Source of the DNA: Planctomycetaceae bacterium
GTDB taxonomy: Bacteria > Planctomycetota > Planctomycetia > Pirellulales > Pirellulaceae
Assembly (NCBI GenBank): GCA_002726515.1
Contig: PBTE01000181.1
Span: 11,174-75,173 of the forward strand
Reading direction: 5' to 3'
DNA length: 64,000 bases
Shown: positions 7,293 to 46,565 of the stretch, piece after piece
Numbering within the stretch: the first letter of the stretch is position 1
Layout: the number at the start of each line of letters is the position of its first letter
Translations under genes and position numbers: made by a program
The notes under the pieces: generated by a model
What the model was told of the DNA's origin: nothing
Database searches by the model: none
What the model saw: the letters and a program-made list of their open reading frames with translations, nothing else

Positions 7293-8288
7293 GTGCTGAA
7301 AGGGCATGCCAACAAGTTTTCCGTCAGTCCGCCGACTGCGACCCGCGCGGGCCTGATGTGGGTAACGTGGTTTGTCTGCGTGCTTCTGCTGCCTGGCGCC
7401 ATCTTCGCAGGGGATAGCTCCCAGAGACCGCGGCAGCGACTCGACAAAATGAGCTCCGTCGAAAAAGAACAGTTGCGCGCTAAACGCGCTCGCTTCAAAG
7501 CGTTACCAGCTGACGAGCAGCAACGGATCAGACAACTGCATCAGCAGATCTCCAGTGAGCCTCAATTGGAGCAAATCACGCACGCGTATTTCTCCTGGTT
7601 AAAAACTCTACCCGCTATTCAGGTCGCCGAGCTGAAGTCCCTCTCCACGCCCCAACGGATCGTGCGCATCAAGGAAATACGGGGCGAACAACAGCAACAG
7701 CTCATCCAGCGTCTAGCCTCGAAACCTCTTTCCAAGAAAGACGGGCAAGCTGTTTTGAAGTGGGCTACACAATTCGTTGAACGGCACCAGGACGAGATTC
7801 TTACAAAATTTTCCACAGATCTGGAAAGACGGTATCATCAAATACGAAATTCTGGCCAGCGCAAGAGGTGGCTGCTCCACGCCGCATGGCAACGGCATGC
7901 CGCGCCAATGCCCAGCGGTCATGAGATTCAGCAACTTTTCGACCAACTCTCGCCCGCAGCGCAACAAGAACTTCAAGCCCTCCAAGAACCAGGAGAAAAA
8001 AAACAAGTTATTCGGCGGTGGGTGCAAACCTCGTTTGTCGAGCGCTTTGGCACAGATCAACTGCTGCCCATCGCCAATGAGAAACAGTTGGATGGATTCT
8101 ACCGAGAATCTTTGACGCGAGATCAGAAGGAGCATCTGGACCGTTTGCCAGGCGCTGAGTTCCAACGTGAGCTGCAGCAGCTTTTCTACAACCGTCCTCA
8201 CATGCCACAACCGGCCGGCCCTCGCCGACATTTTCGTCGCAAAGGCCCTCGCCACCATCCCCCCCGGAGGGACCGACCGCCCAATTAA
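7293..8288 (+). CDS. secreted Gln-rich coiled-coil protein with LTXXQ-like motifs (possible Spy/CpxP-type periplasmic stress protein), third gene of the sigma/anti-sigma operon
   Basis: A GTG at 7293 is preceded by AGGAG (7279-7283) with an 8-9 nt spacer; the alternative ATG is at 7356. Signal peptide '...MWVTWFVCVLLLPGAIFAGD'. Repeated 'L(S/T)xxQ' motifs ('LTRDQKEHL', 'LSTPQRI', 'LSPAAQQEL') and Q/E/R-rich helices. The C-terminus is Pro/Arg-rich. Confidence 0.5.
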   Translation: MLKGHANKFSVSPPTATRAGLMWVTWFVCVLLLPGAIFAGDSSQRPRQRLDKMSSVEKEQLRAKRARFKALPADEQQRIRQLHQQISSEPQLEQITHAYFSWLKTLPAIQVAELKSLSTPQRIVRIKEIRGEQQQQLIQRLASKPLSKKDGQAVLKWATQFVERHQDEILTKFSTDLERRYHQIRNSGQRKRWLLHAAWQRHAAPMPSGHEIQQLFDQLSPAAQQELQALQEPGEKKQVIRRWVQTSFVERFGTDQLLPIANEKQLDGFYRESLTRDQKEHLDRLPGAEFQRELQQLFYNRPHMPQPAGPRRHFRRKGPRHHPPRRDRPPN

Positions 8289-19994: not shown

Positions 19995-21743
19995 GTGTCC
20001 GTTGTCTGTGAAGGTGTTAACGTGGGTACAAACGGCTCCCCTTTCAATAAGACGAATCAGCGGACCGTTGTCGATCGATCTCCGTGGGCTTTCTTTGTGA
20101 TCGGCATCTGCCTGTGGTTGCTCTCCATCCAGTCGACCGGGCAGGCTGCGCAGCGGCCGGGCGATCACACAATCCCGCAGGTTGCTACCATCGACCAAGA
20201 AATCTGGCAGGGCTGGCAGGATTACAAACTGACACCCTCAGCGGTTGCCAAAGACAGTGAATGGTGCCGACGAGTTTACTTGGATTTGATTGGTCGTATT
20301 CCCACGATCGACGAGTTGACAATCTTTGAAAAAGATCGCCCGGCAGATCGCAAACTGAATCTTGTGAACACATTGTTGCACAACGATAAGTACACGGAAG
20401 AGTACGCGCGCAATTGGACTACCATTTGGACCAATGTTCTTATTGGCCGCAACGGTGGCAATGAAAACCGTTCGCTGACAAACCGCCAGGGGATGCAGAA
20501 GTATTTGCGCGACAGTTTCGCCCGCAACAAATCCTACGACCAGATGGTCGTGGAATTGATCAGCGCCGAGGGGGTTAACACTCCCGGGATGAAAAACTTC
20601 AATGGCGCGGTAAATTTTTTAGCCAACAAGCTCACTGAAAATGCGACTCTAGCTACTGCGCAAACCACCGAGATTTTCCTCGGGATGCAGGTCCAGTGCA
20701 CTCAATGCCACAACCATCCGTTCAACGAGTGGAAACAGGCCAAGTTTTGGGAAATGAATGCGTTCTTTCGCCAGACAGTGGCCTTGCGGAGATTTGAATC
20801 TGGTTCCCGTGATATTCAATTTGTCGAACTGGCGAATCAGGATTTTGCCGGAGAAGGTAGTCAGGCTCAAGAGGCCGAACTCTACTACGAACTCCGCAAT
20901 GGACTGTTAAAAGTCGCTTATCCGGTTTTTGTTGACGGAACAGCAATTGGCCCAAGCGGTTACCTGCGAGATGTCAATCGTCGATTGGAATTGGCGCAAC
21001 TGGTTGTCTCTTCTCCGTACATGCCCCAGGCGATCGTGAATCGGATGTGGGCTCATTTTCTGGGTTACGGTTTCACCAAACCGGTAAACGATATGGGCCC
21101 CCACAATACAGCCAGTCACCCTGAATTACTCGCCTATCTGGGTAAAGAGTTTCGCTCCAACAGTTTCGACTTGAAGCAGCTTATCCAGTGGATTGTGCTG
21201 AGCAAACCTTACTCACTGTCGAGCCAGATGAAACGAAACAATTTTCGGGACGATCCCGAACTGGGGGAGCAGCCCAAGTTCAGTCACTTCTATCTCCGGC
21301 AAATGCGCGCCGAGGAACTTTACGAATCCTTGCTGGTGGCCACCCAGGCGCACAAAATTCAACGTAGCTACCAAGAGCAGGAAGAAACCAAGAACCGCTG
21401 GTTGCGCCAGTTCATAATCGCGTTTGGTACGGACGAGGGAGATGAGACCACCACTTTCAACGGTACGATTCCGCAGGCATTGATGCTGTTTAACGGTGAT
21501 CTGATGCAACGCGCGACGAGTGCAGACGAAGGTGGGTTCCTGAACACCATCGCGACAAGCAAACTCACGAATGCCCAGAAGATTCAATATCTTTATCGTG
21601 CCGGACTGGCCCGGCGGCCTTCCGGTCGTGAAATCGGTGCAGCCAATCAACTTTTAGCGGCACGGCTGGGCAATACGACAGCGGCCCTGCAAGACGTTTG
21701 GTGGGCAATTTTAAACAGCAATGAATTTATCCTGAATCATTGA
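19995..21743 (+). CDS. DUF1549/DUF1553 domain protein (planctomycete PSCyt2/PSD1 type)
   Basis: GTG start. Signal/TM '[15 protein letters not shown]'. Hallmark DUF1549 motif '[13 protein letters not shown]'; a Cys-rich '[10 protein letters not shown]' segment; DUF1553-type C-terminus. Confidence 0.85.
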
Positions 21744-21759: not shown

Positions 21760-23025
21760 GTGTTCTCACAAACCCCCACCGGAATGACACGTCGACACTT
21801 CATGCAACACTTGACTGGAGCATCGGCAATGGCGCTGCCTGCCCTCACTTTTGGTACGAGCGTCAGGGCACATGCCGCGGATCTGAAACGTCGCAATAAA
21901 TCGGCCATTATGTTGTGGATGGGTGGCGGTCCTTCAACAATAGATATCTGGGATCTGAAACCGGGTGCAGCAACCGGCGGCAGTTTTACTCCCATCAGTA
22001 CTTCCGGTGACGTGCAAATCTGTGAACACTTGCCCATGATGGCCCAGCAAATGCACCACATGGCGGTCATTCGCTCGATGAGCACGCGCGAGGCTGATCA
22101 CCAACGTGGACGTTACTACATGCACACCGGGTATGTTCCGGATCGCAATGTCCAACATCCTAGTTACGGCTCTGTGGTGGCTCACGAACTGGCAGGAACA
22201 CAAACGGAACTTGAAATCCCCCCTTTCGTTACCGTGGGTGGAGGAAGTGTCGGACCCGGCTTCCTGGGAATGGCATGGGCGCCCTTTACTGTGAGTTCGG
22301 ATGGACAGGTTCGAAACCTCGATCATGACATCGATTCCGATCGACTCCTGCAACGCATGGCAGCGTTAAATCTAATTGAGAGCAGCTTCAATCGACAAAA
22401 TCGTGGTTCGGCGGGAAAAGAACATGAAAAGATTCTTCAAAAGACGCTCACCTTGATGACGAGCGAACAACTGAATGCTTTTCAGGTTCGTCAGGAACCG
22501 CAAGCCGTCCAGGACAGTTACGGTACCGGGGGTTTTGGCCGCGGTTGCCTTCTGGCGCGCCGCTTGGTGGAAGCGGGTGTACCGTTCGTCGAAGTCGATA
22601 TGGGAGGCTGGGACAACCATGCAAACATTTTCCCGACGCTGGAAACCAAGCTTCCCGAAATGGATCAAGCCATGGGCGCCCTGGTCGTTGATCTGGAACA
22701 ACGGGGGTTGCTCGAAGACACGGCCATTATCTGGATGGGCGAATTCGGCCGCACACCCCGTATCAACGGAAACACGGGTCGAGATCATTGGGCGCGCAGC
22801 TGGAGTGTGGTCGTAGGAGGAGGCGGAGTGAAGGGTGGAATCGCCATCGGCGAAACCAATCTTGACGGAACCCGTGTAGAAACCGAACCCTATACGTCCC
22901 AGGATCTGATGGCCTCGGTCTGTCAAGCTCTGGGCATTTCCCTGCAGACGGTTTTTACCAGCAATAATGGCAGGCCGATGAAAATTGCTAACGGCGGCAA
23001 AGTAATTAAAGAGTTGTTCAGCTGA
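21760..23025 (+). CDS. DUF1501 domain protein (sulfatase-like, Tat-secreted)
   Basis: GTG at 21760 with GGAGG 8 nt upstream. Twin-arginine signal 'MTRRHFMQHLTGASAMALPALTF'. It is the conserved partner gene of DUF1549/DUF1553 proteins. Confidence 0.85.
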   Translation: MFSQTPTGMTRRHFMQHLTGASAMALPALTFGTSVRAHAADLKRRNKSAIMLWMGGGPSTIDIWDLKPGAATGGSFTPISTSGDVQICEHLPMMAQQMHHMAVIRSMSTREADHQRGRYYMHTGYVPDRNVQHPSYGSVVAHELAGTQTELEIPPFVTVGGGSVGPGFLGMAWAPFTVSSDGQVRNLDHDIDSDRLLQRMAALNLIESSFNRQNRGSAGKEHEKILQKTLTLMTSEQLNAFQVRQEPQAVQDSYGTGGFGRGCLLARRLVEAGVPFVEVDMGGWDNHANIFPTLETKLPEMDQAMGALVVDLEQRGLLEDTAIIWMGEFGRTPRINGNTGRDHWARSWSVVVGGGGVKGGIAIGETNLDGTRVETEPYTSQDLMASVCQALGISLQTVFTSNNGRPMKIANGGKVIKELFS

Positions 23026-23071
23026 TCGAGCATCCCGCATTTTGCCCGGGTGATAGGGAATTCTGAATTCG

Positions 23072-24478
23072 TTGAAAAATCTACCTCTTTCTTCGTCACC
23101 ACATCGTGGTACCCTCCGGCTTATGCTGCGGCTGGCCATGCCGGTTCTGGCAGGGCAGTTGCTGACGATGCTGGTCGGTTTCACTGACTGGTGGCTGGCG
23201 GGCCACTATCTGCAAGAACCGCGGTATCTGGCTGCCATGGGGCTCATAGCATATGTTCTGTGGCTTCTGCCCAGTACGTTTGCTGCAGTGGCGATTGGTG
23301 CTACCGCCATGGTCGCCCGTTTCATCGGCGCCCGTCAAAACGAAGCCGCAGTTTGCGCCACCAACCAGGCCCTGATCATCGGTATCGTACTCACCATCCT
23401 GGTCACGCTGATAACGTTTTTTTTTGGGTCCGGCTTCGTTCAACTCATGCAATTGAAAGACGATGCCGCACCACTTGCAACCCGCTATTTGTGGATTCTC
23501 GTTCCCGTAATCCCGGCAATCATGATCGAACAGGTTGGCATTGCTTGCCTGCGCGGAGCGGGGGACACCATGAGCGGATTTGTTGCCAAAACCATTGTCA
23601 ATCTGGTGAATGTCGGGGTGAGTTTTGTCTTGGTGACCGGCTACGCAGGATTTCCCCAACGTGGCTGGGATGGTTTGGCACTGGGAACTGCCTGTGGGCA
23701 TGCTGTCGGCGGCCTCATCATCCTGGTGGTCCTTCTGGTCGGTCGCTCCGGACTGAAAATCCGTCTGTCTCAACTGCGACCTGAATTCGACCTGATCAAA
23801 CGGCTCTTACGGATTGGCATTCCGGGCGGCCTGGACATTGGTTTTGTGCTGCTCTGTCACTTGGTCTACGTATCTATTATCAACCGCATCGGCACACTGG
23901 CGGCGGCGGCCCATGGCCTGGGAGTCACGATTGAGTCCATGGCTTATTTGACAGGTGTGGCTTTTCAAGTTGCCGCTACAACAATGACAGGCCAGTTCCT
24001 GGGAGCCCGGGACCCGCGTCGCGCGACGAGAAGTGCCTGGCTGGCATGTTCAGTCGCCGGGGGATTCATGCTGGTGACTGCCTTCGCCTTCCGTTTTTTG
24101 CCGGAACTGCTAACTTCCTTTTTCACAGGAGATGCGTCCAGTCACACGGCGCAAGCCACCATACCGTTGCTACGAATCGTCGCTTTGTCCATCCCCTCAC
24201 TGACCCTGATCCAAGTTCTTAACGGTGCCTTGCGCGGTGCAGGAGACACACGTTGGCCGTTGATCATCTCCATCGTGGGTCTGCTGGGCATTCGCCTCCC
24301 AGGGGCTTGTCTGTTGGCCTGGGACCAACTGCCCATTCCCGGCACCCATCTTGTTTTCCAAGGATTCGGTTGGGGAGTTGAGGGCGCTTGGTATGCGATG
24401 TTGATCGATACGATTGTGCGCAGCATTTTGATGGTCGCCCGGTTTTGTCATGGGGGATGGAAGAACGTTCGTGTCTGA
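23072..24478 (+). CDS. MATE family efflux transporter
   Basis: 468 aa with 12 predicted TM helices. N-terminal 'LRLAMPVLAGQLLTMLVGFTDWWLAG' is typical of MATE/NorM. A TTG start is at 23072; the alternative ATG is at 23123. Confidence 0.85.
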   Translation: MKNLPLSSSPHRGTLRLMLRLAMPVLAGQLLTMLVGFTDWWLAGHYLQEPRYLAAMGLIAYVLWLLPSTFAAVAIGATAMVARFIGARQNEAAVCATNQALIIGIVLTILVTLITFFFGSGFVQLMQLKDDAAPLATRYLWILVPVIPAIMIEQVGIACLRGAGDTMSGFVAKTIVNLVNVGVSFVLVTGYAGFPQRGWDGLALGTACGHAVGGLIILVVLLVGRSGLKIRLSQLRPEFDLIKRLLRIGIPGGLDIGFVLLCHLVYVSIINRIGTLAAAAHGLGVTIESMAYLTGVAFQVAATTMTGQFLGARDPRRATRSAWLACSVAGGFMLVTAFAFRFLPELLTSFFTGDASSHTAQATIPLLRIVALSIPSLTLIQVLNGALRGAGDTRWPLIISIVGLLGIRLPGACLLAWDQLPIPGTHLVFQGFGWGVEGAWYAMLIDTIVRSILMVARFCHGGWKNVRV

Positions 24479-24825
24479 AACATGTGAATTCTGGTCGGCG
24501 CATTCAAACGCCTGGCAAAATGGAAACCGGGTATGAAAAGATCAATGTCCGCGAAACTTTGTGGTATTCACACTTCCCATTCTTTTGCGTTCAGTCGTCC
24601 CTTTCCGTTCCTGCAACGGTCACACCCAGCCTTGGTTGCTTCTCTAGTCAAAAAGAATCTGGTCTGTTAATCTTTTTTTGCAGAAGGATCCCATAAGATG
24701 ACCGATTCCCCCCGACTCACACCCTGTTACCAGAATCTGCATCGGAGTAACGTTTTCTGTGAGCACTGCACGGGAACATATTGCAGACATTCTGCGCCAC
24801 CGATTGCCACCCCGCAGACGCAGCT
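24395..24825. repeat. diverged direct repeat copy A (~430 bp), partner at 26555-26990
   Basis: This copy covers the last ~25 codons of the MATE gene, the 220-bp intergenic/promoter region and the first ~40 codons after ATG 24698. It is ~75-80% identical to copy B, with an identical core 'cgattgtgcgcagcatt', 'ggttttgtcatgg', 'tagtcaaaa.gaa.ctgg..tgttaatct' and 'atgac..attccccccga'. Confidence 0.6.
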
Positions 24826-26410
24826 CCGTGCGAGGACAACGCCCGACGTCACTATAACTTCGCATTTTCTAAGTCAATGTCGTTGGATCAGTCTACTGCT
24901 GGCCATACTGGTTTTGCTTGGATGTGGAAAGTCGCGTGACAGAGCAAACCGAGACGGTCGTCCATTTCCTCCGTTGGTGGTTTTGTATGCGCCATGCACG
25001 GTCAACAAAAGTTTTCTCTCTCCGTACAACCGAGAGGTGACCTACACGCCTCATCTTGAGTCGTTTGCAAATTCGGCGACCGTATTTACAAAACATCGCA
25101 CCGAAGCCGGACTGTCGGGAATCGCCTACGCTTCGATTTTGACCGGATCCCAGGCGCCCGAACATGGAGTCTACGCACACCCGGCCCGACTGCGAGATTC
25201 ACTCTATGACATCACGGAGGCGTTTGCTGCGAACGGTTACGACGTCTTTTTTTGGAACGATCAACGCATGGGGGCGGCAGATTTAAATTATGGACAGGGT
25301 GTTCCGCCGGAAAACGTGTTTGAACGGATACTGCAAGCGGACGATCGCGATTTTAAAAGAATACTTAAAAAGCTTCGCAAAGACCCGGACTATCGTGTCT
25401 TTCTATTGGTGAATTTTCGGGTCAATCACAATCCGTATCGCTCAGACAATCTGGTGAGTTTCCTGCAGAATTTTCCCGAGGAACGTAAGGATCTTGCCGG
25501 GATAACACAGCCGCAAGTGAATCGCTACATGAATTTGTACTACAAACACGACTTCTCACTGCGTTACGATTTTGAACGTACTCGAGAGCTGCAAGGTCTC
25601 ACTGAGAAGGAACTTGATGATCTAACCCGCGTTGTTCAGTTGTTGTACAAGTCAAATATTCCAATCCTGGACCAATTGTTTGGTGAAGTTGTGGCAAACA
25701 TTGATGCGGCGGGTTTCGCGGATGATTCGCTGATCGCATTTTCGGCGGATCACGGTGAATCCATGTTTCGCTCGCATGCACCATTTAAATGGTCTCACGG
25801 ACACGCGGTACAATCGGACGTGCTGGATGTCCCACTGATCATTCGTACGCCAAAAACATTTTCTGCAACCCATCGCTGTGAATTCGTGACGCGTTCGGTA
25901 GACATCTTTCCAACCCTGACCGCTTTAGCCCAACTTGAGTTACCGGAAAAAGTGTCTGTCGAGGGACATGACCTGTCGAAATACATGCGTCCGGGTCAGC
26001 CAGATCCGGGATTATCGGCGTATTCTCACTCGGGAATGGTGTTCCCATTATCTGGCAAGCGATATGCCGTGCAGAACCTGATGGGTCAATATCTGGCACG
26101 GTACTATCCTGCATCGGACATGGTTCATACTTGGGTTGCTATCCGACGTGGTGACTTTGTCTGGAAATACCGTTCGCTGGAAGACCAGACCTTCGTTTTT
26201 CAAGCGTTCGATGTGAGCCGGGATGCGGCCGAATCAACAAATCTTTTCGATATGGAAGATCCACGGCACCAAGAAATGTCCACCGAGTTGAAACGCTACA
26301 AGGACCATTTGGTGCGCTCCTATCGGGAATGGAGTTCGGCACCTCCCCCCGTCGAACTCGGTGAACAAGAAGAACTGAAGCGTCTTCGCAGCATGGGGTA
26401 CGTGAAGTGA
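24698..26410 (+). CDS. sulfatase-like hydrolase (alkaline phosphatase superfamily) with chimeric N-terminus derived from a degraded YkgJ-like gene start
   Basis: 570 aa. Sulfatase-type motifs 'AFSADHGESMF' and 'PLIIRTP'. An internal lipoprotein-type signal, 'RWISLLLAILVLLGCGKS', sits at residues ~60-80. It is preceded by 55 residues ('MTDSPRLTPCYQNLHRSNVFCEHCTGTYC...') homologous to the N-terminus of the YkgJ-family protein at 26863. No in-frame ATG/GTG/TTG lies between 24698 and the signal peptide. Confidence 0.7.
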   Translation: MTDSPRLTPCYQNLHRSNVFCEHCTGTYCRHSAPPIATPQTQLRARTTPDVTITSHFLSQCRWISLLLAILVLLGCGKSRDRANRDGRPFPPLVVLYAPCTVNKSFLSPYNREVTYTPHLESFANSATVFTKHRTEAGLSGIAYASILTGSQAPEHGVYAHPARLRDSLYDITEAFAANGYDVFFWNDQRMGAADLNYGQGVPPENVFERILQADDRDFKRILKKLRKDPDYRVFLLVNFRVNHNPYRSDNLVSFLQNFPEERKDLAGITQPQVNRYMNLYYKHDFSLRYDFERTRELQGLTEKELDDLTRVVQLLYKSNIPILDQLFGEVVANIDAAGFADDSLIAFSADHGESMFRSHAPFKWSHGHAVQSDVLDVPLIIRTPKTFSATHRCEFVTRSVDIFPTLTALAQLELPEKVSVEGHDLSKYMRPGQPDPGLSAYSHSGMVFPLSGKRYAVQNLMGQYLARYYPASDMVHTWVAIRRGDFVWKYRSLEDQTFVFQAFDVSRDAAESTNLFDMEDPRHQEMSTELKRYKDHLVRSYREWSSAPPPVELGEQEELKRLRSMGYVK

Positions 26411-26551
26411 CCCCGGACGATGTTCGGCAGCCAGGGTCGTGTATTGCGGCCGATCCAAGGAGCAGATTTTAGCTTGCAGCCGTCATTGGACTTCTTCCAT
26501 CGTAATCCGCGTCCAGTGAAACTTCGTCCGCCGGTGGTGCTGAAGCTTTGA

Positions 26552-26698
26552 TGGGTCGTGTTGATTGCGGCGATTGTGCGCAGCATTCTGGTGGTCGGTC
26601 GGTTTTGTCATGGAGGATGGAAGAGCCTTCGGTGTGAAGCCAATGACCCCCGGAAGCTGGAATCAAAACACGTGGCAAAACCCTGGGCGGGATTTTGA
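26552..26698 (+). pseudogene. remnant of a MATE transporter C-terminus (48 codons) inside repeat copy B
   Basis: Translation '...IVRSILVVGRFCHGGWKSLRC...' parallels the true MATE C-terminus '...IVRSILMVARFCHGGWKNVRV*' at 24410-24478. A stop lies immediately upstream (26549-26551), so no full gene is present. Confidence 0.4.
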
Positions 26699-26990
26699 GA
26701 CAATCAAGATCCCGGGAACTTCGTGGTTTCCATCCGCCCTGCTCTTTGGCGTTCATCCTCCTTTCTCCCTTCCCACTACTAACCACACCAGGTTCGCCGT
26801 TGGTTCACTAGTCAAAAGGAAGCTGGTTTGTTAATCTCTTTTTGCAGGAGGATCCCCCTAAAATGACTAATTCCCCCCGAATCAAGCCGCGGCGCCGGGA
26901 TTTAGATCCGAGTGAAATGTTGTGCGAATACTGCACGGCAAAGTGTTGCAGATATTTTGCTCTACCGATCGAAACCCCGGAGACCGCTGA
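26555..26990. repeat. diverged direct repeat copy B (~435 bp), partner at 24395-24825
   Basis: See copy A. This copy retains the intact YkgJ-family gene start and promoter. Confidence 0.6.
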
Positions 26991-27306
26991 GGACTTTGCG
27001 TTCATCCGCTGGTATCTTTTTCACGGCCAGGCGAGCGTCTTCACGGAGGACGAGGACTGGTACCTGTTGGTACACACGATCTGCAAACATTTGCAGGAAG
27101 ACAATCTTTGCGGGGCGTACGAGACACGGCCTCAAATCTGTCGTGATTACACGACCAACGACTGTGAATACGAAGACGAGTGGACGTATGATCGCTACTT
27201 CGAGATTTCGGAACAAGTTGAGGAATATTCCGACGCCATTTTTTCCGGACGAAACGGCGAAAGTATTCGCAGTCGTAAGCCCGCACTTCTACCCATAGTC
27301 GGATAG
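26863..27306 (+). CDS. YkgJ family Cys-cluster protein (CxxCxxCC putative Fe-S/Zn-chelating domain, UPF0153)
   Basis: ATG at 26863 with GGAGGA 10 nt upstream. 'CEYCTAKCC' N-terminal motif and 'CGAYETRPQICRDY' C-terminal motif. The ORF frame opens at 26842. Confidence 0.7.
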   Translation: MTNSPRIKPRRRDLDPSEMLCEYCTAKCCRYFALPIETPETAEDFAFIRWYLFHGQASVFTEDEDWYLLVHTICKHLQEDNLCGAYETRPQICRDYTTNDCEYEDEWTYDRYFEISEQVEEYSDAIFSGRNGESIRSRKPALLPIVG

Positions 27307-27311
27307 TGGGC

Positions 27312-28652
27312 ATGTCGAAAAGCTCTCTGATTCAACCACGCACTTTACGAGGCTTTCGGGACTACCTGCCCGATGCCATGATGCCGCGTGAACAACTGAT
27401 CGACACGGCTCGACAAGTTTATCGTTCTTATGGTTTCAGTCCGATCGATACTCCGGCTCTTGAATACGAAGAAATACTGGCAGGGAAAGGTGGTGATGAA
27501 TCTGACAAACTGATGTACCGCTTCGAGGATGGTGGGGGTCGAAGCGTGGGGATGCGGTTTGATCTGACTGTTCCCCTGGCCCGCTTCGCCGCGCAGCATG
27601 TGGCACAATTAGGTGTGCCCTGGAAACGCTACCAGATCGCAACTGTCTGGCGGGCGGAAAAATCGCAGCGCGGACGCTATCGTGAATTCATGCAGTGTGA
27701 CTTCGATACCATCGGCACACGTTCCTTGGCTGCCGATATCGAAACCGCCGTGGTCATCCACGACCTTTTTTCCACGCTAAAACTCAGCGACATTCACATC
27801 CACATCAATCATCGCCAGGTTCTCACCGGACTGTTGGAACAAGTCGGGCTTCTCGACCAATCCGTCGTCGTTTTACGTGCCATCGACAAGCTTGCTAAAA
27901 TCGGACACGAAAAAGTGGCTGAGGAAATTGAGACGGTCGGTGGTGCCTCGGCGCAGCAAGCCAAGGAAGTGCTTCAACTCTGCAATATCTCCGGCACCAA
28001 TGATGAAATGCTGCGTCAGGTCGAAGCGTTAGTCGTGTCAAGCGAAACCGGCATGGAAGGTTTGCATGCTCTGCGCCAGATCGTCGCCGGGGCTTCTGCT
28101 GCCGGGGTACCACAAGACAAGATCAAGATTGATGTGGCGACTGCGCGCGGACTTGATTATTACACAGGTACCGTATACGAAACCTTTCTCGATCAACTGC
28201 CAAACATTGGCAGCGTCTGTTCCGGTGGCCGTTATGATAATCTGGCCAAACTGTTTACCCACCAGGAGCTTCCCGGAATCGGTGCATCCCTGGGATTGGA
28301 CCGGCTCTTGGCGGCCATGGAAGAGCTTGGCATGATCGAAAAGGTTTCGACACCGGCCCAGGTCTTCATCCCCTTCTTCGAAAAAAGCCGCTTGCACGAG
28401 TACCTTCAGCTGGCAACTCAGCTTCGCGCCGCAGGGATCGGGGTCGAAGTCTTTCCCGAACCCAAAAAGCTGGGTCAACAGCTTAAATATGCGGATCGAC
28501 GGGGCTTCCGCATCGCACTGATCATGGGAGATCAGGAGTTTTCTGACGGCACCTGTCAGGTCAAAAACCTGTCGACCGGGTCCAGCGAGGAAATTGGCCT
28601 GGACCCGGATGCCAGTAACCTTGTTTCTGCAGTGCGGCAACTTCTGGTATAA
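27312..28652 (+). CDS. hisS: histidine--tRNA ligase
   Basis: Class II aaRS motifs 'RGFRDYLP', 'YRFEDGGGRSVGMRFDLTVPLARF', 'RYREFMQCDFD', 'GGRYDNL'. ATG at 27312; GTG at 27306. Confidence 0.9.
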   Translation: MSKSSLIQPRTLRGFRDYLPDAMMPREQLIDTARQVYRSYGFSPIDTPALEYEEILAGKGGDESDKLMYRFEDGGGRSVGMRFDLTVPLARFAAQHVAQLGVPWKRYQIATVWRAEKSQRGRYREFMQCDFDTIGTRSLAADIETAVVIHDLFSTLKLSDIHIHINHRQVLTGLLEQVGLLDQSVVVLRAIDKLAKIGHEKVAEEIETVGGASAQQAKEVLQLCNISGTNDEMLRQVEALVVSSETGMEGLHALRQIVAGASAAGVPQDKIKIDVATARGLDYYTGTVYETFLDQLPNIGSVCSGGRYDNLAKLFTHQELPGIGASLGLDRLLAAMEELGMIEKVSTPAQVFIPFFEKSRLHEYLQLATQLRAAGIGVEVFPEPKKLGQQLKYADRRGFRIALIMGDQEFSDGTCQVKNLSTGSSEEIGLDPDASNLVSAVRQLLV

Positions 28653-30577: not shown

Positions 30578-30621
30578 ATGCTAGAAACTCTCCGCTACTA
30601 TGCTAGAAACTCTCCGCCCTG
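30578..30621. repeat. 22-bp tandem direct duplication (ACTATGCTAGAAACTCTCCGC x2)
   Basis: Two adjacent copies differ at one base. They lie in the divergent intergenic region between the DegT gene and the pseudo-receiver gene and overlap the ORF-track ATG at 30600. Confidence 0.7.
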
Positions 30622-30668
30622 ACTGGAAACGACCTTCCGCAGCCCGTTGGGGCTGTCTGCCGCCTCGG

Positions 30669-31532
30669 ATGCGTGTACTGTTCATCACTGAGAGTCGACG
30701 GCGCGCCGGTTGGCTCAATGAAGCATTCGCTACGGACAGCGCCACTGAAATTCAATTGGAGGAAGCGACAAGCCAAGCCAATGGAATTGAACGAATACGC
30801 GACGGTCTTTTCGACGCGATTATCGTGAGCCACGAACCGGAACAATTGGACGCTTTCGAATTTTTAGGAGCCGTACGTGCCGGAAACGGGGAGCACCAGC
30901 CCACGCTGGTTCTGGGCGATTCGCCAGAACACGAAATGAGGGTTTTGAGCTATGAGGTGGGAGCAGGTGCTTATGTATGCATCAACCACACCTCCACGCG
31001 CGAATTGATGTGGCAGCTTGCGCGGGTGATTGAACACCACGAATTGATTGCCGAAAATCGGCGGCTCATGATGGAGCACAAACATCGCTTGCAACTTGAC
31101 CACGAAGAAGCAACCAGGCTGCTGGAACAACAGCACGAATTGGTCAAGAACCCGGAGACTCTCTACTCGCTCGGACGGACAGGACCGTCCCATCCCCGGA
31201 TCACACCATGTGCCGGGGCGCCCGTGCCCGATTCGCTCACTGCGCACTACAAAGAACTGTTGCAAACTTACGTCATCATGGGATCCGGGAACCTGAGCAG
31301 CCGGATCGAAATTTTTTCCTCCCAACTCGCCGACTTGGGGATCACTGCCCAACAAACCATGCAAATGCACCTGCAGGTTTTGGAGCAGGTGGCCAACCAG
31401 CTGAAATCCCGCAGTGCCCGGCACGTTGTCAATCGTGCCGATCTGCTCGTGCTTGATGTGCTGCTGCATCTGTGTGAAGAATACCAGCGGCTCTGGCGGG
31501 AAAATCTTCCGCTTGATTCGCAAGCCGCATAA
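30669..31532 (+). CDS. pseudo-receiver (REC-like) domain protein with C-terminal coiled-coil/helical domain
   Basis: Starts 'MRVLFITESRRR...FDAIIVSHEPEQLDAFEFLGAVR...PTLVLGDSPEHEMRVLSYEVGAGAYVC'. This is a receiver-fold alignment in which the phospho-acceptor Asp is replaced by Ser ('IVSHE'). The ORF frame opens at 30600 inside the tandem repeat. Confidence 0.5.
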   Translation: MRVLFITESRRRAGWLNEAFATDSATEIQLEEATSQANGIERIRDGLFDAIIVSHEPEQLDAFEFLGAVRAGNGEHQPTLVLGDSPEHEMRVLSYEVGAGAYVCINHTSTRELMWQLARVIEHHELIAENRRLMMEHKHRLQLDHEEATRLLEQQHELVKNPETLYSLGRTGPSHPRITPCAGAPVPDSLTAHYKELLQTYVIMGSGNLSSRIEIFSSQLADLGITAQQTMQMHLQVLEQVANQLKSRSARHVVNRADLLVLDVLLHLCEEYQRLWRENLPLDSQAA

Positions 31533-41430: not shown

Positions 41431-44400
41431 TTACTCGATGAAACGGCGCAACAGTACCGCTCGATCAACGTTGTGGTTCTTTCCCGGCTCGAAAGCGACG
41501 GGAATCGTCCGATCGACAATATAAAAGGCACGGTGTCGGTTGACCTCCCCCCCCTCCAAGCCGCGCTCCAAACCAGGTTCACCGGTTTGCGGATCGACTT
41601 CGAAATAACCGACCGTGATCCAAATCGCATACACGTTGGAGCGCGTTGTCACCAGATTCCCCAGCCGCTGCAAAAACTGGTAGCGAAAATAGGAGTGGCG
41701 GCTGTAGTGACTGTCAGCGGCCGCTGATGAGTTTTGAAACAGGAGCCTGCCTCTGTCAGCGAAGACACCCGCGGGCCTTAACAGCGTGGCGGCAATCTCG
41801 CGATGCGTGCCTGGTAACAAACCACCTGGTAACATTCCACTTGGAAGAGTCTCGCCGATTATGTTCTCGATTTTCGGTACTAATTGGGCCGATCCAAATG
41901 CTCGAAACGGGTTGCGGAACAAGGTGGGAAAGCCACTGAAACCGACAACAGGGTCGCCGCTTTGCGGGTATCCACGGCGACTTTCTGCCAACTGCTTATA
42001 GTCTGGCCCGGCAAAACCGTTTGTGACAGCATTCCAAACCTTTTCACTGTAAATCGTATTGATGTTAATTCGACCCGGATCACGAAAATACGACAGTTGA
42101 TTGAACGGAGCCTGATACTTTTCAGTCGCCGCGTTGCCGGCTTGAAAGACCACTGGATTCAACTGCATTGATGTACCCAGGAATCGGGAAGGCACATGGG
42201 TCAACTCGAAAACCCGGAACAATTCTGAAGCATCGTTGTTCACGAAGCCCGAATTGAAGAAATTCAGCAAATGGCGATAGCGGGAACTGTTGAAATTAGA
42301 ACTCGACGACTGGTACAGAGTGGGGTCGACTTTCCAGGGTACGTCGCCCGAAGCGGGCCAGGTAAACAAAGCCGTCAGCCGGGCCGAGCTCGTGTGTGGA
42401 ACGTGCAACAACTCGAGGTTGTTGACAAAAGGTCGATTCAACCACAAGAGCCAAGGAAAAGTGTTATTTTGATCGAGTTGATAGTTCCTGTTGCGATATC
42501 CCATCGTGTGCTGCAATTCTTCTCCAGGAGGACCATTAGGTATTCCATTAGGTATTCCCTTGTCTCCCCGGCCCGATTCCATGATCTCAATCGTCGGAAG
42601 ATAAGCCTGCCAAAGAGTGTTGGTCCCAGGAGCTTCAAAGTCACCTCGCTGGAGCGTGACAAACCTATCAGCAACCGTATTTGTTCCCTCGAATTCGCTG
42701 GGCTCTGGTGGAAACGGATCAGCGCCGACCTCGGTTTCGGTTTTACTGTTAAACACCGTGAGATTCACATACATGGAGTCGATCGTGCGGTACGGATTGG
42801 CCTGAGAATCGTAAGGAATCAGTGGGTTGGCCAACCGTTGTAGGTGAATGACCCTGAAATTTTCTCGAGTCCCGCCCTTCATGAGATAATGCTCTTGTTG
42901 GTGATCGGAGTCGTTATCTATATCTAACGGCGTATCAAGCGGGGGATCATACGCCGTTCCATTGATCGGGGGGGGTTGATATCCAGCGATCGGCGCTGAG
43001 ATGTTTAAAACTTCCGTGTCGCTGGAAATTCCAATTGCCAGACAGGTTGCGGGTGGACCTGGAGGCTGGCCCTCTTGACTCACCGTGACCGAGTAATTTT
43101 GTGGATCGAGCTCGATTTTTCGCTTTGCCGGTAACTCGCTGACATAAACGTTAGGGTTTCCTTGCGTGGACTCTCTTGCCGAACCGAGAACCGCAAATTG
43201 ACCCGGCTCCAAAGTCATATCTTGCGCTGGATCCGCACCATTAGCCCAATACTGGTGTCCGTCATTCTGAATATTAGGATTCAAGGTCTCCGGATCCTGG
43301 TCGGTGAAATAAACACTACGCTCGATGTCACCCGGGTTCGGTTCATCGTCCATGCCGTTGGTGGTCACAATCAGCAACCGCCAGACCGGGTCCCCTTCAG
43401 CCGGATCGTTCTGCGTCCGTTGATTGAGGCGAACTCCGAGCAGCTCAACGTAATCGTAGTTTAAATCATTGGTTTTGTAGTCATGGTAGAACTCCGCTGG
43501 CCTGCGATCCTCGCCTGTCCATGGATTATAGAGTTCGATGAACAATGATCCGCGAGGGCGTTCTCTCTGGTCATAGTCGTCATCATGATCGTCAGGTGCT
43601 TGTGCCTCCGGATGTTCCGGATGATAACCTTCGCCACCGTCATCATTGTCCAAATCTTCCGTGCGACGATCATGAAACGCTAACGTTTCGGTGATCAGCA
43701 GTTCGGGACGTTCACAACCCCAAACGATCCTGCGCTCATTGGGGTCGTCTTCTTCATCGGCTTCATCAACCTCTCCATCGAAGTCATTGTCGCGCTCATC
43801 ATTACGGCCATCTGTGGCCGGATCTCCGTTGACGTGCCAGCCATTGAACGGATTGATATCAAACTCAAAGGGTGTCATGATCGAGTCAGAATCGCGGAAA
43901 TCCACCACATTGATGGCCCACTGTGCTATCCCGATAGCTGTTTCCTTGGACGCAAGAGGGTCGAGTTCTTCCAGCGGTCCATGAAAATCGATGGTTTTGT
44001 TGGGTTCTATCAGAGCCATCATCAAAACATACAAGTGCCGAGCGTAAAGGTGCCGAGCCAGTTGGTTTCCGTTAACAGCATTGCCATCGTTCTCCAGATC
44101 CATCCAAACGCCAGCCAAAAACTCCATGTCGGCTTCCGATGGGTCGTCGACGACCAGATTTCTCGGACCGTCGATACCCCTTTGGCCGTCAAAGCCATCG
44201 CCGAACACACGATTTACGTCAAAACGCAAACCTTTGAGAAGGTCGGGGGACAGGAGTTTTTCGAGTTCCAGGCTGATCAACGCCTCGTCGGTAAAACCGT
44301 TCTGACGGAGTAGGCTGCGGACTCTGTCGACAATGCTGCCGGGGAACTTTGGCACGGCAATGTCGTCGCCGTTAGCAATCTTGCCCGGGAAACTGGGTAC

Positions 44401-46287
44401 GGGAACATCAAAACCCTCTGTGGTAATCTGATTACGGTATTTTCTCGAAAAGTTCGGGTCAGCAGCGAACAGTTGGTCGATCCTCCCAACTAACAACGTC
44501 GACCCTGGGGGGCCGCCCGCATCACCGTCGTAGCAACGCAACACGCGTTCCAACTCTGCGGTGGAAAACAAGGTGTCCCGAGAAGTTGCAATATCGCCAC
44601 GCACTGAAAGGGTCGACAGCCCCATCTCATAAGGGCTATCCGTGTTCGGATAGAAGGTGTCGGGACCCTGCGTCTGTGGCCTGACTTTGTCATAAACCGG
44701 TTGTCCGTACGGGTTGACGGAGACTGATGTAAGGCCATGCAGGTCGGATGGACTCCCGAATCCGTGCTTCCAATACTGATCCCAATAGTCTTCCGGATGG
44801 TCATGAAAGGCGACTTCGGATGTTCGACTGTCCTCCAGCGCCGGCATCAAACGCTCGGCATTGGCAACGGTATCTTTACCGACTCGGCCCGGCTTGAAGT
44901 CAATGCCGTAGCGACCCCGTTTTCCGTTTGCTCCTGAAAACAACACCTCCGAATTCGGTCCTAGAAGCTCCTTCAAGTCAATTTCAGCGGGGCCATATCC
45001 CTGCCCTGCGGGTTGGCCCATTGTTGCAGGGTTCTTGGACACGAAACCTGACAGGTCTTGGTGGCCGTGCGCGTTCAGGTTCAGCCGCCCATCCAGATCG
45101 GTGCAGAGAACGGCAAACAGCGGTTTATAGATCCGGCCGTCACTGGCTGTCTTCGTGGGGTATCCCAGGTCCATCCAGATGCTGTCGGTAATTCCGTCGC
45201 TGTCGTTATCAACATCCCATTTCCTCTGAAGACTGGCCGGATTCTGTGGGTCCATGACCGGGTCAAACCAGGGGTTGTTCAGGTGGAATTTGTTGGCTTT
45301 TTGATTAGGGGCTTTGGTGCGATGGTTGGGACGAAAAGAAATTCGCTTATAGAGCGGTGGGTTGTTCGCGGCAACGTCTTCCCCATTCTGTCCGTTCCAA
45401 TAGTTGTTCAAGGCGCGCATCTGGAACGATGGCTTGATATCAGCCGCATGAGACGGATCTGGTGGAAGGATGGCCAGAAACGGATTCTGAAAATCAGCCG
45501 CGTCGTAAGACTCGTCCGAACCACCGGAAATAGCGTCCCACAAAATTGGTTCGGGCTGACCAGCTAAATTCGGAGAAAGTGCATAAGGTACTGCTCCATC
45601 GGATCCAGTCAGGAGTCCGTCGTCATCTGACAGAGTCGTGGGATCGTACCCTACCCCCGTACCGTTAAATGGCCGCCCGTTGACAAGGATGCGAGTACCT
45701 GACGGTAGATCGGTAACCAGATTGTAAATGCGACGATGACTCCCCTCTGGCAAAATCGCCACGCGCAACACAGGTTGACCAAAATCTGGATCTGGAATGT
45801 AGCCAACCACACGTGCGGTGACGCCGGCAGCCGGACCATCGAGCACCGTCAACACCTGTCCGTTGTAGAACCCGGCCGTGGGGCTGGGAACCAACGTCCC
45901 GGCATTGCCATAGATGTCCGTAAAAGTGCCCGCGGCGAGGGGCAGATGCAAAAACTGACCTTGGGTGGCTCCCGCTGACGAAGCACTGCCTGCCAACTGA
46001 CAAATGAAGCCGTCCATGCCGTAGAAGTCGGCCAGAATACTTAAACCGCGCAGTGGTGACTGCTGATTTCGCGTGTCCCGTAAAAGATCGTAGAACGCCC
46101 GGTCAAGTTCTTTTCGCGGGTCGTCTTCGGTTTGCTCCAGGGTCAAACCGACCGCGGAAGCATTCCGGTAATGATGGGCAACGATCGAATAGGTGACTGC
46201 CAGCAGCGCAAACATGGCCAGAATGGCCAGGACGACCAGCAGGAGCACACCGCGTCGCTGTCGGTTTTTTCTTGATCTTTTCAACAT
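41431..46287 (-). CDS. giant (1618 aa) GspK-like pseudopilin-domain protein with Asp-rich Ca-binding-type loops
   Basis: Start ATG (complement of 46285-46287) with AAGGAG 8 nt upstream. N-terminus 'MLKRSRKNRQRRG|VLLLVVLAILAMFALLAVTY' is a pilin-like leader + Gly + hydrophobic helix lacking Glu+5, as in GspK/minor pilins. The body has many DxDxDG-type loops ('DVDNDSDGITDS', 'DENDGNAVNG', 'NDERDNDFDGEVDEADEEDDP', 'DLDNDDGGEGY'). The ORF frame extends to 46458. Confidence 0.6.
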   Translation of the reverse strand: MLKRSRKNRQRRGVLLLVVLAILAMFALLAVTYSIVAHHYRNASAVGLTLEQTEDDPRKELDRAFYDLLRDTRNQQSPLRGLSILADFYGMDGFICQLAGSASSAGATQGQFLHLPLAAGTFTDIYGNAGTLVPSPTAGFYNGQVLTVLDGPAAGVTARVVGYIPDPDFGQPVLRVAILPEGSHRRIYNLVTDLPSGTRILVNGRPFNGTGVGYDPTTLSDDDGLLTGSDGAVPYALSPNLAGQPEPILWDAISGGSDESYDAADFQNPFLAILPPDPSHAADIKPSFQMRALNNYWNGQNGEDVAANNPPLYKRISFRPNHRTKAPNQKANKFHLNNPWFDPVMDPQNPASLQRKWDVDNDSDGITDSIWMDLGYPTKTASDGRIYKPLFAVLCTDLDGRLNLNAHGHQDLSGFVSKNPATMGQPAGQGYGPAEIDLKELLGPNSEVLFSGANGKRGRYGIDFKPGRVGKDTVANAERLMPALEDSRTSEVAFHDHPEDYWDQYWKHGFGSPSDLHGLTSVSVNPYGQPVYDKVRPQTQGPDTFYPNTDSPYEMGLSTLSVRGDIATSRDTLFSTAELERVLRCYDGDAGGPPGSTLLVGRIDQLFAADPNFSRKYRNQITTEGFDVPVPSFPGKIANGDDIAVPKFPGSIVDRVRSLLRQNGFTDEALISLELEKLLSPDLLKGLRFDVNRVFGDGFDGQRGIDGPRNLVVDDPSEADMEFLAGVWMDLENDGNAVNGNQLARHLYARHLYVLMMALIEPNKTIDFHGPLEELDPLASKETAIGIAQWAINVVDFRDSDSIMTPFEFDINPFNGWHVNGDPATDGRNDERDNDFDGEVDEADEEDDPNERRIVWGCERPELLITETLAFHDRRTEDLDNDDGGEGYHPEHPEAQAPDDHDDDYDQRERPRGSLFIELYNPWTGEDRRPAEFYHDYKTNDLNYDYVELLGVRLNQRTQNDPAEGDPVWRLLIVTTNGMDDEPNPGDIERSVYFTDQDPETLNPNIQNDGHQYWANGADPAQDMTLEPGQFAVLGSARESTQGNPNVYVSELPAKRKIELDPQNYSVTVSQEGQPPGPPATCLAIGISSDTEVLNISAPIAGYQPPPINGTAYDPPLDTPLDIDNDSDHQQEHYLMKGGTRENFRVIHLQRLANPLIPYDSQANPYRTIDSMYVNLTVFNSKTETEVGADPFPPEPSEFEGTNTVADRFVTLQRGDFEAPGTNTLWQAYLPTIEIMESGRGDKGIPNGIPNGPPGEELQHTMGYRNRNYQLDQNNTFPWLLWLNRPFVNNLELLHVPHTSSARLTALFTWPASGDVPWKVDPTLYQSSSSNFNSSRYRHLLNFFNSGFVNNDASELFRVFELTHVPSRFLGTSMQLNPVVFQAGNAATEKYQAPFNQLSYFRDPGRININTIYSEKVWNAVTNGFAGPDYKQLAESRRGYPQSGDPVVGFSGFPTLFRNPFRAFGSAQLVPKIENIIGETLPSGMLPGGLLPGTHREIAATLLRPAGVFADRGRLLFQNSSAAADSHYSRHSYFRYQFLQRLGNLVTTRSNVYAIWITVGYFEVDPQTGEPGLERGLEGGEVNRHRAFYIVDRTIPVAFEPGKNHNVDRAVLLRRFIE

Positions 46288-46565
46288 CGCACCTTCTCCT
46301 TTTGGCAAACCCCTTTGGAACACATGTGGCTCACACCGCTGCCATTCCGGTTTGCCTGACATTTCACCCCTGAAATGATTTTTGTGGTCGCCCGTCAACC
46401 GTTTTTCGTTTTCCCGCTCGCTTGGGAAAGACTGCCGCCTCGCTCGACTCGTCGCCATCGCAGCGCAAGCTGCGGCCGCCTGTCACAAGATGTTAATCGA
46501 GAGCTCCTACTTTCATGCACTGTTCGTCGTGCTCCGCTTTCCTCCATTTCACCGCTTGTTGTGTT

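Follow-up and report, generated by a model that had tools for sequence, protein, structure and literature searches.

Probable old capture of a sulfatase-like lipoprotein gene by duplication of a MATE-ykgJ junction in Pirellulales, with an in-frame fusion to the ykgJ start

We analysed a 64,000-nucleotide stretch of DNA from a Planctomycetaceae bacterium (GenBank assembly GCA_002726515.1, contig PBTE01000181.1, positions 11,174 to 75,173; the window), in which a gene for a sulfatase-like hydrolase lies between a MATE-family efflux transporter gene and a ykgJ-like gene, and is bracketed by two diverged copies of a direct repeat of about 420 bp. The reading that we favour, and consider quite likely from the sequence comparisons described here, is that an old duplication-insertion fused the sulfatase-like gene in frame to a borrowed promoter, ribosome-binding site and ATG and left the ykgJ-hisS gene pair intact. 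The positions of all features are collected in Table 1.

Copy A and copy B of the repeat aligned at 71.5% identity over 432 columns with 17 gap columns (blastn E 1.5e-50, with the whole window as search space). The Smith-Waterman score of the pair was 165, compared with 11.2 +/- 1.4 and a maximum of 19 in 200 shuffles, and the best gapless blocks reached 85% over 73 nt at the MATE 3' end and 88% over 58 nt just 5' of the two ATGs. Each copy comprises the last ~27 MATE codons, an intergenic region of ~220 bp and the first ~41 ykgJ-like codons. These results confirm a direct repeat that had been proposed at this place in a sequence-only reading of the DNA. The identity, estimated there at ~75-80%, is 72-73% overall by pairwise alignment. 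Copy A adjoins the intact MATE gene, as that reading had it: the last ~27 codons of the gene, up to its stop codon at 24476-24478, form the left end of the copy. At the left end of copy B is a MATE C-terminal remnant with a TGA (26549-26551) directly before it and a 1-nt deletion near its 3' end that abolishes its own stop. It had been described as 48 codons long with a stop upstream; the stop is there, but the MATE-derived part spans ~27 codons, and 46-48 codons is the length of the resulting open frame. In six- and seven-way alignments, the homology between A and B begins and ends at identical columns in every genome. The direct repeats hold the 5' regulatory region and the 5' end of ykgJ and bracket the sulfatase-like gene, which is the architecture of a capture by duplication.

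The same architecture was found in relatives of the window. A protein search gave two full-length matches of 570 aa, P0001 with 88% identity (93% in the mature part) and P0002 with 79% (84%). Three contigs from uncultivated Pirellulales, L001, L002 and L007, have the gene order DUF1501-MATE-sulfatase-ykgJ-hisS with both junctions as in the window (L007, from the genome collection, is identical over the compared genes to the metagenomic L044). Since three further contigs carry the same junctions and the 570-aa fused open reading frame (ORF), the event is old. The MATE orthologues of these contigs and of a fourth relative, L043, are 93-94% identical to that of the window at the amino-acid level. 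The comparison with orthologous loci that had been suggested as a check thus put the sulfatase between MATE and ykgJ in L001, L002 and L007, and a single-copy MATE-intergenic region-ykgJ arrangement in L043. The N-termini of the relatives had the same ykgJ-derived start and the same repeat end columns, not unrelated sequence. The remnants have decayed separately: L001 has its own independent 1-nt deletion in the MATE remnant, and in L002 and L007 the remnant is wholly deleted, with 160 bp from the sulfatase stop to ykgJ. In the latter two (L002 4072-4230, L007 ~7841-8000), the phosphodiesterase relic described below is deleted together with the MATE remnant. What is left of copy B in them is the promoter-proximal ~160 bp alone, and this marks the needed portion of the repeat.

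Unfused orthologues of the enzyme place its origin in a different operon. In P0003 (80% identical), P0004 (72%) and more distant ones, the protein has its own Met 15-27 residues before the lipobox Cys. A divergent sulfatase gene lies upstream of the P0004 gene, and downstream of it are a 684-aa phosphodiesterase-family gene, a sulfotransferase-like gene and a second phosphodiesterase-family gene. On the short P0003 contig, a large gene immediately downstream encodes a product that aligns with the L004 phosphodiesterase-family protein. In the spacer that separates the sulfatase stop from copy B in the window, tblastn detected a relic of this downstream gene; its translation, IQGADFSLQPSLDFFHRNPRPVKLRPPVV, matches residues 92-120 of the L003 and L004 proteins with 48% identity over 29 aa. 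The corresponding relic in L001 covers 38 aa at 45% identity and is collinear with the same part of the protein. Relic scores lay at z = 8-13 above 300 shuffles, none of which attained the observed score. No nucleotide homology was found between the spacer of the window and the DNA 3' of the sulfatase gene in L003 or L004; the relic is detectable at the protein level alone. The own ATG of P0003 and P0004, their different operon and the relic in the window mark the gene as captured from another context. The earlier proposal that a sulfatase was captured between copies of a duplicated MATE-ykgJ junction agrees with the native-context orthologues, the relic and the shared junctions. The captured gene appears to have come with ~27 nt of leader and without the ~265-bp upstream region of L004, and therefore without its own promoter.

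In copy A, the ORF that opens at ATG 24698 reads stop-free into a hydrophobic segment and a lipobox. Its ykgJ-derived leader no longer has an intact CxxCxxCC motif: the residues are CEHCTGTYC in the window, and CECCTAKRY and CKDFAAKRY in relatives. No Pfam match to this remnant was found in the fused protein, and with 41 codons and CEHCTGTYC it falls outside PF03692. The protein of the intact downstream gene carries CEYCTAKCC and belongs to this CxxCxxCC family. The sequence-only reading had recognized the degraded YkgJ-like codons, and their homology to the start of the intact gene holds, but they number ~41 and not ~45. The nine linker codons that follow presumably stem from the original 5' leader of the sulfatase gene, of which ~27 nt were carried along. 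Directly after them, the position of the native start is ATG in the unfused L003, ATC in L001, GCC in L002 and GTC in the window. An N-terminal extension of 55 aa had been reported; we measured 50 codons to the former native start and 62 to the Arg of the signal peptide.

The fused ORF contains no in-frame ATG, GTG or TTG between its codons 2 and 72, and the rare-type start codons in the leader are limited to CTG 24737, ATT 24803, ATA 24854 and ATC 24887. The ATA at 24854-24856 replaces an in-frame TTG, two codons past the old ATG, which is kept in L001, L002 and L007. ATG 24698 is therefore the only canonical start in the window, and we infer that translation begins there. The claim that no other start codon is available before codon 73 was thus borne out for the window, rare-type codons aside. 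For annotation, the long ORF call is probably right here, despite its look of a mis-called start. L001, L002 and L007 keep the TTG, so the borrowed ATG is not their sole possible start.

The signal peptide that follows the leader is of the lipoprotein type. Read from the sequence, R62-WISLLLAILVLL-LLGC76 has the positively charged n-region, the hydrophobic h-region and the [LVI][ASTVIL][GAS]C lipobox of such peptides, and Kyte-Doolittle window means of 2-3.4 within the fused N-terminus are confined to residues 63-74. All orthologues have the lipobox Cys (codon 24923-24925). In nine aligned unfused orthologues it is residue 17-31; counted from ATG 24698 it is residue 76, outside the first ~15-35 residues in which a lipobox Cys is expected. 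The leader carries six Arg or Lys compared with three Asp or Glu, and this net positive charge fits a leader that would stay on the cytoplasmic side of the hydrophobic segment.

Selection differs along the fused protein. The dN/dS of the mature part was 0.13-0.16 in all comparisons (0.16 for the window and L001), indicating purifying selection, and that of the signal-peptide core was 0.12-0.31 in the window comparisons. The leader gave 0.5-2.5, which is roughly neutral. For the ykgJ codons, copy A compared with copy B within a genome gave 0.5-0.7, and the functional copy gave 0.03-0.37 between genomes. In four lineages the leader contained no in-frame stop, compared with 2-3 in each other frame, and no indel; indels do occur in the MATE remnant (frameshifts and a deletion) and in the copy-A intergenic region. 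With random placement of the substitutions, the chance of staying stop-free was 0.13-0.18 for the 62 substitutions between the window and L001 and 0.25 for the 36 between L001 and L002. Together, these data are moderate evidence that the leader frame is kept open by selection.

The putative captured promoter is represented by a 9-nt extended -10-like element, TGTTAATCT, which is identical in copy A and copy B (26829-26837) and lies 33-34 nt before the ATG in both. Each copy also has a Shine-Dalgarno-like sequence, that of copy A lying inside the 58-nt block of 88% identity. Upstream of ykgJ, TGnTAnnnT occurred within 150 nt in 28 of 52 non-redundant Pirellulales loci, compared with 5.8 (maximum 13) in shuffles. 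Transcription of the fused gene would accordingly be expected from the copy-A promoter. The motif upstream of ykgJ-hisS (loci L007-L087) often takes the form TGTTAnCT or TGATAnCT, and may be a promoter signature for Pirellulales. An Rfam scan of 23000-28000 for riboswitches and leader RNAs gave only a sub-threshold chance match.

The closest relative of the window, the metagenome contig L043, lacks the sulfatase. It is 94-98% identical to the window at the nucleotide level over more than 5 kb on each side, with a flank dS of 0.14-0.18, compared with 0.25-0.39 between the window and the other lineages. In L043, MATE and ykgJ are separated by a 222-bp spacer. Its single copy of the repeat is A-like at 17 of 17 informative sites up to column 31 and overwhelmingly B-like from column 49, and the switch falls within a 17-nt stretch, CGATTGTGCGCAGCATT, that is identical in both copies. 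The intergenic part is 91% identical to copy B and 67% to copy A of the window, and it likewise resembles the B copies of L001 and L002 more closely than their A copies. Within a genome A and B differ by 16-34%, well above the 9% by which L043 departs from window copy B, so that L043 cannot be explained as a plain pre-duplication state. Read most simply, its single copy arose when the duplication collapsed through recombination between the repeats.

The cassette is also a mosaic among the lineages that carry it. To the left of ~25137, L001 and L002 are closest to each other (dS 0.11, up to 98% identity) and the window is distant (dS 0.4-0.5). To the right, the window and L001 are closest (dS 0.18, 96-98% identity), below their flank value of 0.25-0.32, and L002 and L007 are distant (dS 0.6-0.67). 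This mosaic, within 24479-26540 and with its breakpoint near 25137, suggests that lineages recently exchanged homologous sequence within the gene. In the 5' part of MATE (23171-23470), identity between the window and L043 drops to 88% and that between L043 and L007 is 96-100%, suggesting a short recombination tract. From the cassette mosaic and this patch together, homologous exchange appears to be frequent among these lineages, and such gene flow explains the high divergence of copy A in the window without any special acceleration. Accelerated evolution of copy A was considered and dropped; its K of ~0.4-0.5 agrees with how far the adjacent 5' part of the sulfatase gene has diverged at synonymous sites. 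Outgroup quartet site counts gave too few informative sites to root the locus tree, with HisS favouring a grouping of the window with L043 and MATE not doing so.

The following history would account for these observations. A lipoprotein gene would have been torn from its native operon together with ~27 nt of 5' leader and a piece of the next, phosphodiesterase-family gene, and would have inserted at codon ~41 of the ykgJ-like gene, the first of the conserved ykgJ-hisS pair. In the process ~420 bp would have been duplicated, from the last ~27 MATE codons through the intergenic region with TGTTAATCT and the Shine-Dalgarno sequence to the first 41 ykgJ codons. Copy A would then supply promoter, ribosome-binding site and ATG as an in-frame fusion, and copy B would preserve ykgJ-hisS with its own promoter. 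An insertion without a second promoter-ykgJ copy would sever hisS from its upstream signals, which may be why only the duplicated form survived. After the fusion the native ATG would have decayed, and the later loss of the TTG in the window would mean that translation there has to start at ATG 24698. The 62-residue leader would have no sequence-specific function and would evolve near-neutrally, needing only an open frame. It is probably cytoplasmic, and the hydrophobic segment and lipobox would be handled as a long lipoprotein signal peptide. The repeats would still recombine, leaving the chimeric single A/B copy without a sulfatase in the closest relative.

Such a structure could form in one step by a replicative template switch that left ykgJ at codon ~41, copied the sulfatase fragment and re-entered ~420 bp upstream. 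Campbell-type integration of a circle would give the same structure, and a large tandem duplication followed by a large deletion is a less likely route. We found no second copy of a sulfatase homologue anywhere in the 64-kb window, so the tandem route needs a duplicated segment longer than 23-37 kb, with the native operon beyond that distance. At the junctions, any microhomology has been lost to divergence. Promoter use, translation start and export of the fused protein are all plausible on the present evidence.

Several observations weigh against this history. The support for an open frame is moderate, with a chance of ~0.03 for stops over the tree, and becomes stronger only when the absence of indels is added. 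In L001, L002 and L007, translation may in reality begin at the TTG that lies two codons past the old ATG, and initiation in the window could also take place at the rare ATA 24854 or ATC 24887. Some 75 residues precede the lipobox Cys, far beyond the usual range. A scan of 24300-27000 for the sigma-70 -35/-10 consensus found nothing, below shuffle expectation, so the promoter is recognized by the -10-like motif alone. An intrinsic terminator scan of the same region found none separating MATE, sulfatase and ykgJ; with neither a full promoter nor a terminator, read-through from MATE could also drive the sulfatase-like gene. L043 is probably a secondary rather than an ancestral state, and a never-interrupted ancestral MATE-ykgJ junction was not found among the related genomes compared. 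One possibility, which we consider unlikely, is that the fused frame is incidental. Translation would then begin near the old start, at the TTG or, in the window, at ATA 24854 or ATC 24887, or else the window gene would have lost export or be on its way to a pseudogene, and copy A would give at most transcription. This would be in line with the TTG kept in L001, L002 and L007, with a leader dN/dS of about 1, with a single-lineage stop-free chance of 0.13-0.41, which is not small, and with a lipobox Cys atypically distant from the N-terminus. However, past its opening ATG the window frame contains neither ATG nor GTG nor TTG before codon 73, and yet the mature part shows a dN/dS of 0.16 relative to L001. 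The leader has acquired no stop or indel in four lineages, unlike the neighbouring MATE remnant and intergenic DNA, and loss of the native ATG in all fused lineages is expected only if another start had taken over.

The empty site in L043 admits other explanations than collapse. The window cassette may have been acquired, or reacquired, by homologous recombination, for example from an excised circle at the 17-nt-plus stretch, so that L043 would be the pre-acquisition state; we give this only a small share of the probability. The switch from A to B is equally the footprint of an integration or an excision, the cassette is a phylogenetic mosaic with its breakpoint at ~25137, a separate patch lies at 23171-23470, and outgroups root the flanks only weakly. 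A deletion between direct repeats is nevertheless simpler and commoner (PMC5918244). The flank dS between the window and L043 is much below the divergence of the A and B copies, and because the window shares its junctions with L001 and L002, the common ancestor of all three most simply had the cassette already. It is less probable again that the empty site is an assembly artefact and no natural polymorphism, the assembler having jumped from A to B via a shared k-mer. The empty site is known from a single contig, its switch point coincides with the longest stretch over which A and B are identical, and a mis-join would yield the same sequence as a real deletion. Against this, the identical stretch in the window is 17 nt, under usual assembly k-mers, and the protein search gave no sulfatase nearer to the window than P0001. 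Direct repeats around an inserted gene would also be left if a transposable element or an integrase had brought in the sulfatase gene and duplicated its target site, which we regard as very improbable. Typical transposon target-site duplications are far shorter than 420 bp. Searches for inverted repeats in 23000-28000 and for tRNA genes in the window were both negative, the neighbouring genes include neither a transposase nor an integrase, and the insert includes a truncated piece of an ordinary neighbouring gene. A transposon-, integrase- or tRNA-linked insertion was rejected on these grounds.

Table 1. Features of the captured-gene locus and its neighbours; positions are those of the window
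Feature	Position	Strand	Basis or remark
PSCyt2/PSD1 gene	19995-21743	+	
DUF1501 gene	21760-23025	+	
MATE-family efflux transporter gene, intact	23123-24478	+	Pfam MatE E 4e-48; NCBIfam TIGR00797
Repeat copy A: MATE 3' end, 219-bp intergenic region, ~41 ykgJ-derived codons	24399-24819	+	blastn
17-nt stretch CGATTGTGCGCAGCATT, identical in both copies	A 24411-24427; B 26571-26587	+	
Extended -10-like element TGTTAATCT of copy A, putative captured promoter	24665-24673	+	33 nt upstream of ATG 24698
Shine-Dalgarno-like AGAAGGA, copy A	24682-24688	+	inside the 58-nt, 88%-identical block
Fused ORF, 570 codons	24698-26410	+	Pfam Sulfatase domain begins at residue 108
ykgJ-derived codons 1-41 of the fused ORF	24698-24820	+	alignments to copy B and relatives
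Nine linker codons without ykgJ homology, directly 5' of the position equivalent to the native ATG	24821-24847	+	
GTC (Val51) at the lost native start position	24848-24850	+	DNA comparison and N-terminal protein alignment
Lipoprotein-type signal peptide core: Arg62, hydrophobic WISLLLAILVLL, lipobox LLGC	24881-24925	+	hydropathy, orthologue conservation
Mature sulfatase-like (alkaline-phosphatase superfamily) hydrolase, end including stop	24926-26410	+	Pfam Sulfatase PF00884
Relic of the donor's downstream phosphodiesterase-family gene, translation IQGADFSLQPSLDFFHRNPRPVKLRPPVV	26453-26539	+	tblastn
MATE C-terminal pseudogene remnant, ~27 codons, left end of copy B	26552-~26634	+	
Repeat copy B: MATE remnant, intergenic region, start of the intact ykgJ-like gene	26559-26984	+	blastn
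Shine-Dalgarno-like AGGAGGA, copy B	26846-26852	+	
CxxCxxCC (YkgJ-like, PF03692) gene, intact, 147 aa	26863-27306	+	Pfam E 2.4e-7
hisS (histidyl-tRNA synthetase)	27306-28652	+	Pfam tRNA-synt_His E 2e-51

The mature enzyme matches PF00884 at residues 108-412 of the fused protein (E 9.7e-21), and its nearest solved structures are arylsulfatases and phosphonate monoester hydrolases. The formylglycine motif C/S-x-P-x-R is absent: the S-S-P-H-R position of 8di0 aligns to S-G-I-A-Y, at ~25070-25120 (residues HRTEAGLSGIAYASILTG), which is invariant in the ten family members aligned. All orthologues P0001-P0012 show S-G-I-A-Y in place of C/S-x-P-x-R. It is unlikely from these residues that the enzyme is a classical sulfatase, and 'sulfatase-like' is an apt label because it is a member of the PF00884 superfamily without the motif. 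The G+C content of the sulfatase region, 0.46-0.52 compared with 0.53-0.57, is slightly lower and gives no clear foreign signature.

On the upstream side, the longest ORF of the MATE gene begins at TTG 23072, and ATG 23123 gives the 451-aa form called in relatives. Downstream, the TAG stop of ykgJ (27304-27306) overlaps the GTG of hisS at 27306, with a further ATG at 27312, and the two genes are adjacent in nearly all sufficiently long loci among 36 genome and 45 metagenome loci, a synteny preserved throughout the order; hisS is probably co-transcribed with ykgJ, judging from this arrangement. More distant relatives, with a ykgJ identity of 71% or less, have no MATE gene upstream of ykgJ. In L062 (MATE 66% and YkgJ 73% identical), a purU-like gene with ACT and formyl-transferase domains lies between MATE and ykgJ (1388-2242, - strand of that locus), so the MATE-ykgJ interval has housed different genes in different lineages. 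Distant relatives were rejected as representatives of the ancestral junction, since MATE is not upstream or, in L062, the purU-like gene intervenes. Elsewhere in the window, a conserved 310-aa ORF at 30600-31532 (+), present also in L001 and L002, gives a Pfam match to the KaiA C-terminal domain (E 8e-8) that is unexpected outside cyanobacteria, and a very long ORF of 1675 aa occupies 41431-46458 (-).

Laboratory evolution has shown that duplications can switch genes on by bringing them under the promoter of another gene; old, fixed, natural promoter captures whose steps can be read from sequence are uncommon. At this locus almost every step would still be legible: the native operon of the donor with the fragment carried along from it, both junctions, the loss of the redundant native start, the neutral drift of a leader that need only stay open, the independent decay of useless remnants and the probable collapse of the duplication in a sister lineage. 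The locus is also a natural test of the length of N-terminal extension that a lipoprotein signal peptide tolerates. More tentatively, and on balance doubtfully, the cassette may have been lost, regained and partly exchanged via the 420-bp repeats among co-existing Pirellulales, its product being exported despite ~75 residues before the Cys. If this is true, the Sec/Lgt/Lsp pathway here would accept a signal peptide that is 2-3 times as long as usual and assembled from the remains of an unrelated gene.

With type I formylglycine sulfatases (PF00884) the enzyme shares homology at the level of the domain; it differs in having S-G-I-A-Y for the motif, and its substrate need not be a sulfate ester. 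Autotransporters carry extended signal peptide regions of ~25 residues that are conserved and functional. The window leader resembles them as extra residues N-terminal to a normal n-h-c signal peptide, but is 50-62 residues long, comes from an unrelated gene and evolves neutrally. Campbell-type insertion-duplication produces the same architecture of truncated gene copy, insert, truncated copy of the upstream gene and intact gene, and its reverse reaction is a precise loss, as the L043 footprint suggests, although no plasmid or phage sequences are present at the window locus.

A known parallel is the rnk-citG duplication of the long-term evolution experiment with E. coli, which puts citT under the rnk promoter, makes a truncated fusion ORF and collapses readily by homologous recombination (PMC5918244). 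Promoter capture by duplication or deletion has likewise been described in the experimental activation of transferred genes (PMC6614815). As in rnk-citG/citT, a promoterless gene in the window lies behind the putative promoter of an unrelated gene with a truncated fusion ORF, the direct repeats would allow a collapse by homologous recombination, and the original promoter-bearing gene is intact. Unlike citT, the window gene is fused in frame, so that it would borrow the start codon too and gain a leader of 50-62 residues. The window repeats, with a short length of 420 bp, enclose DNA of a different locus and do not form a simple contiguous tandem copy. The event, known from sequence, is no laboratory one: it is ancient, its copies having diverged by 28%, and has become fixed in several lineages in nature. 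The kind of event, promoter capture by duplication, is thus already known; the twist read from this locus is an in-frame fusion that would donate a start codon and, with it, a long leader without function.

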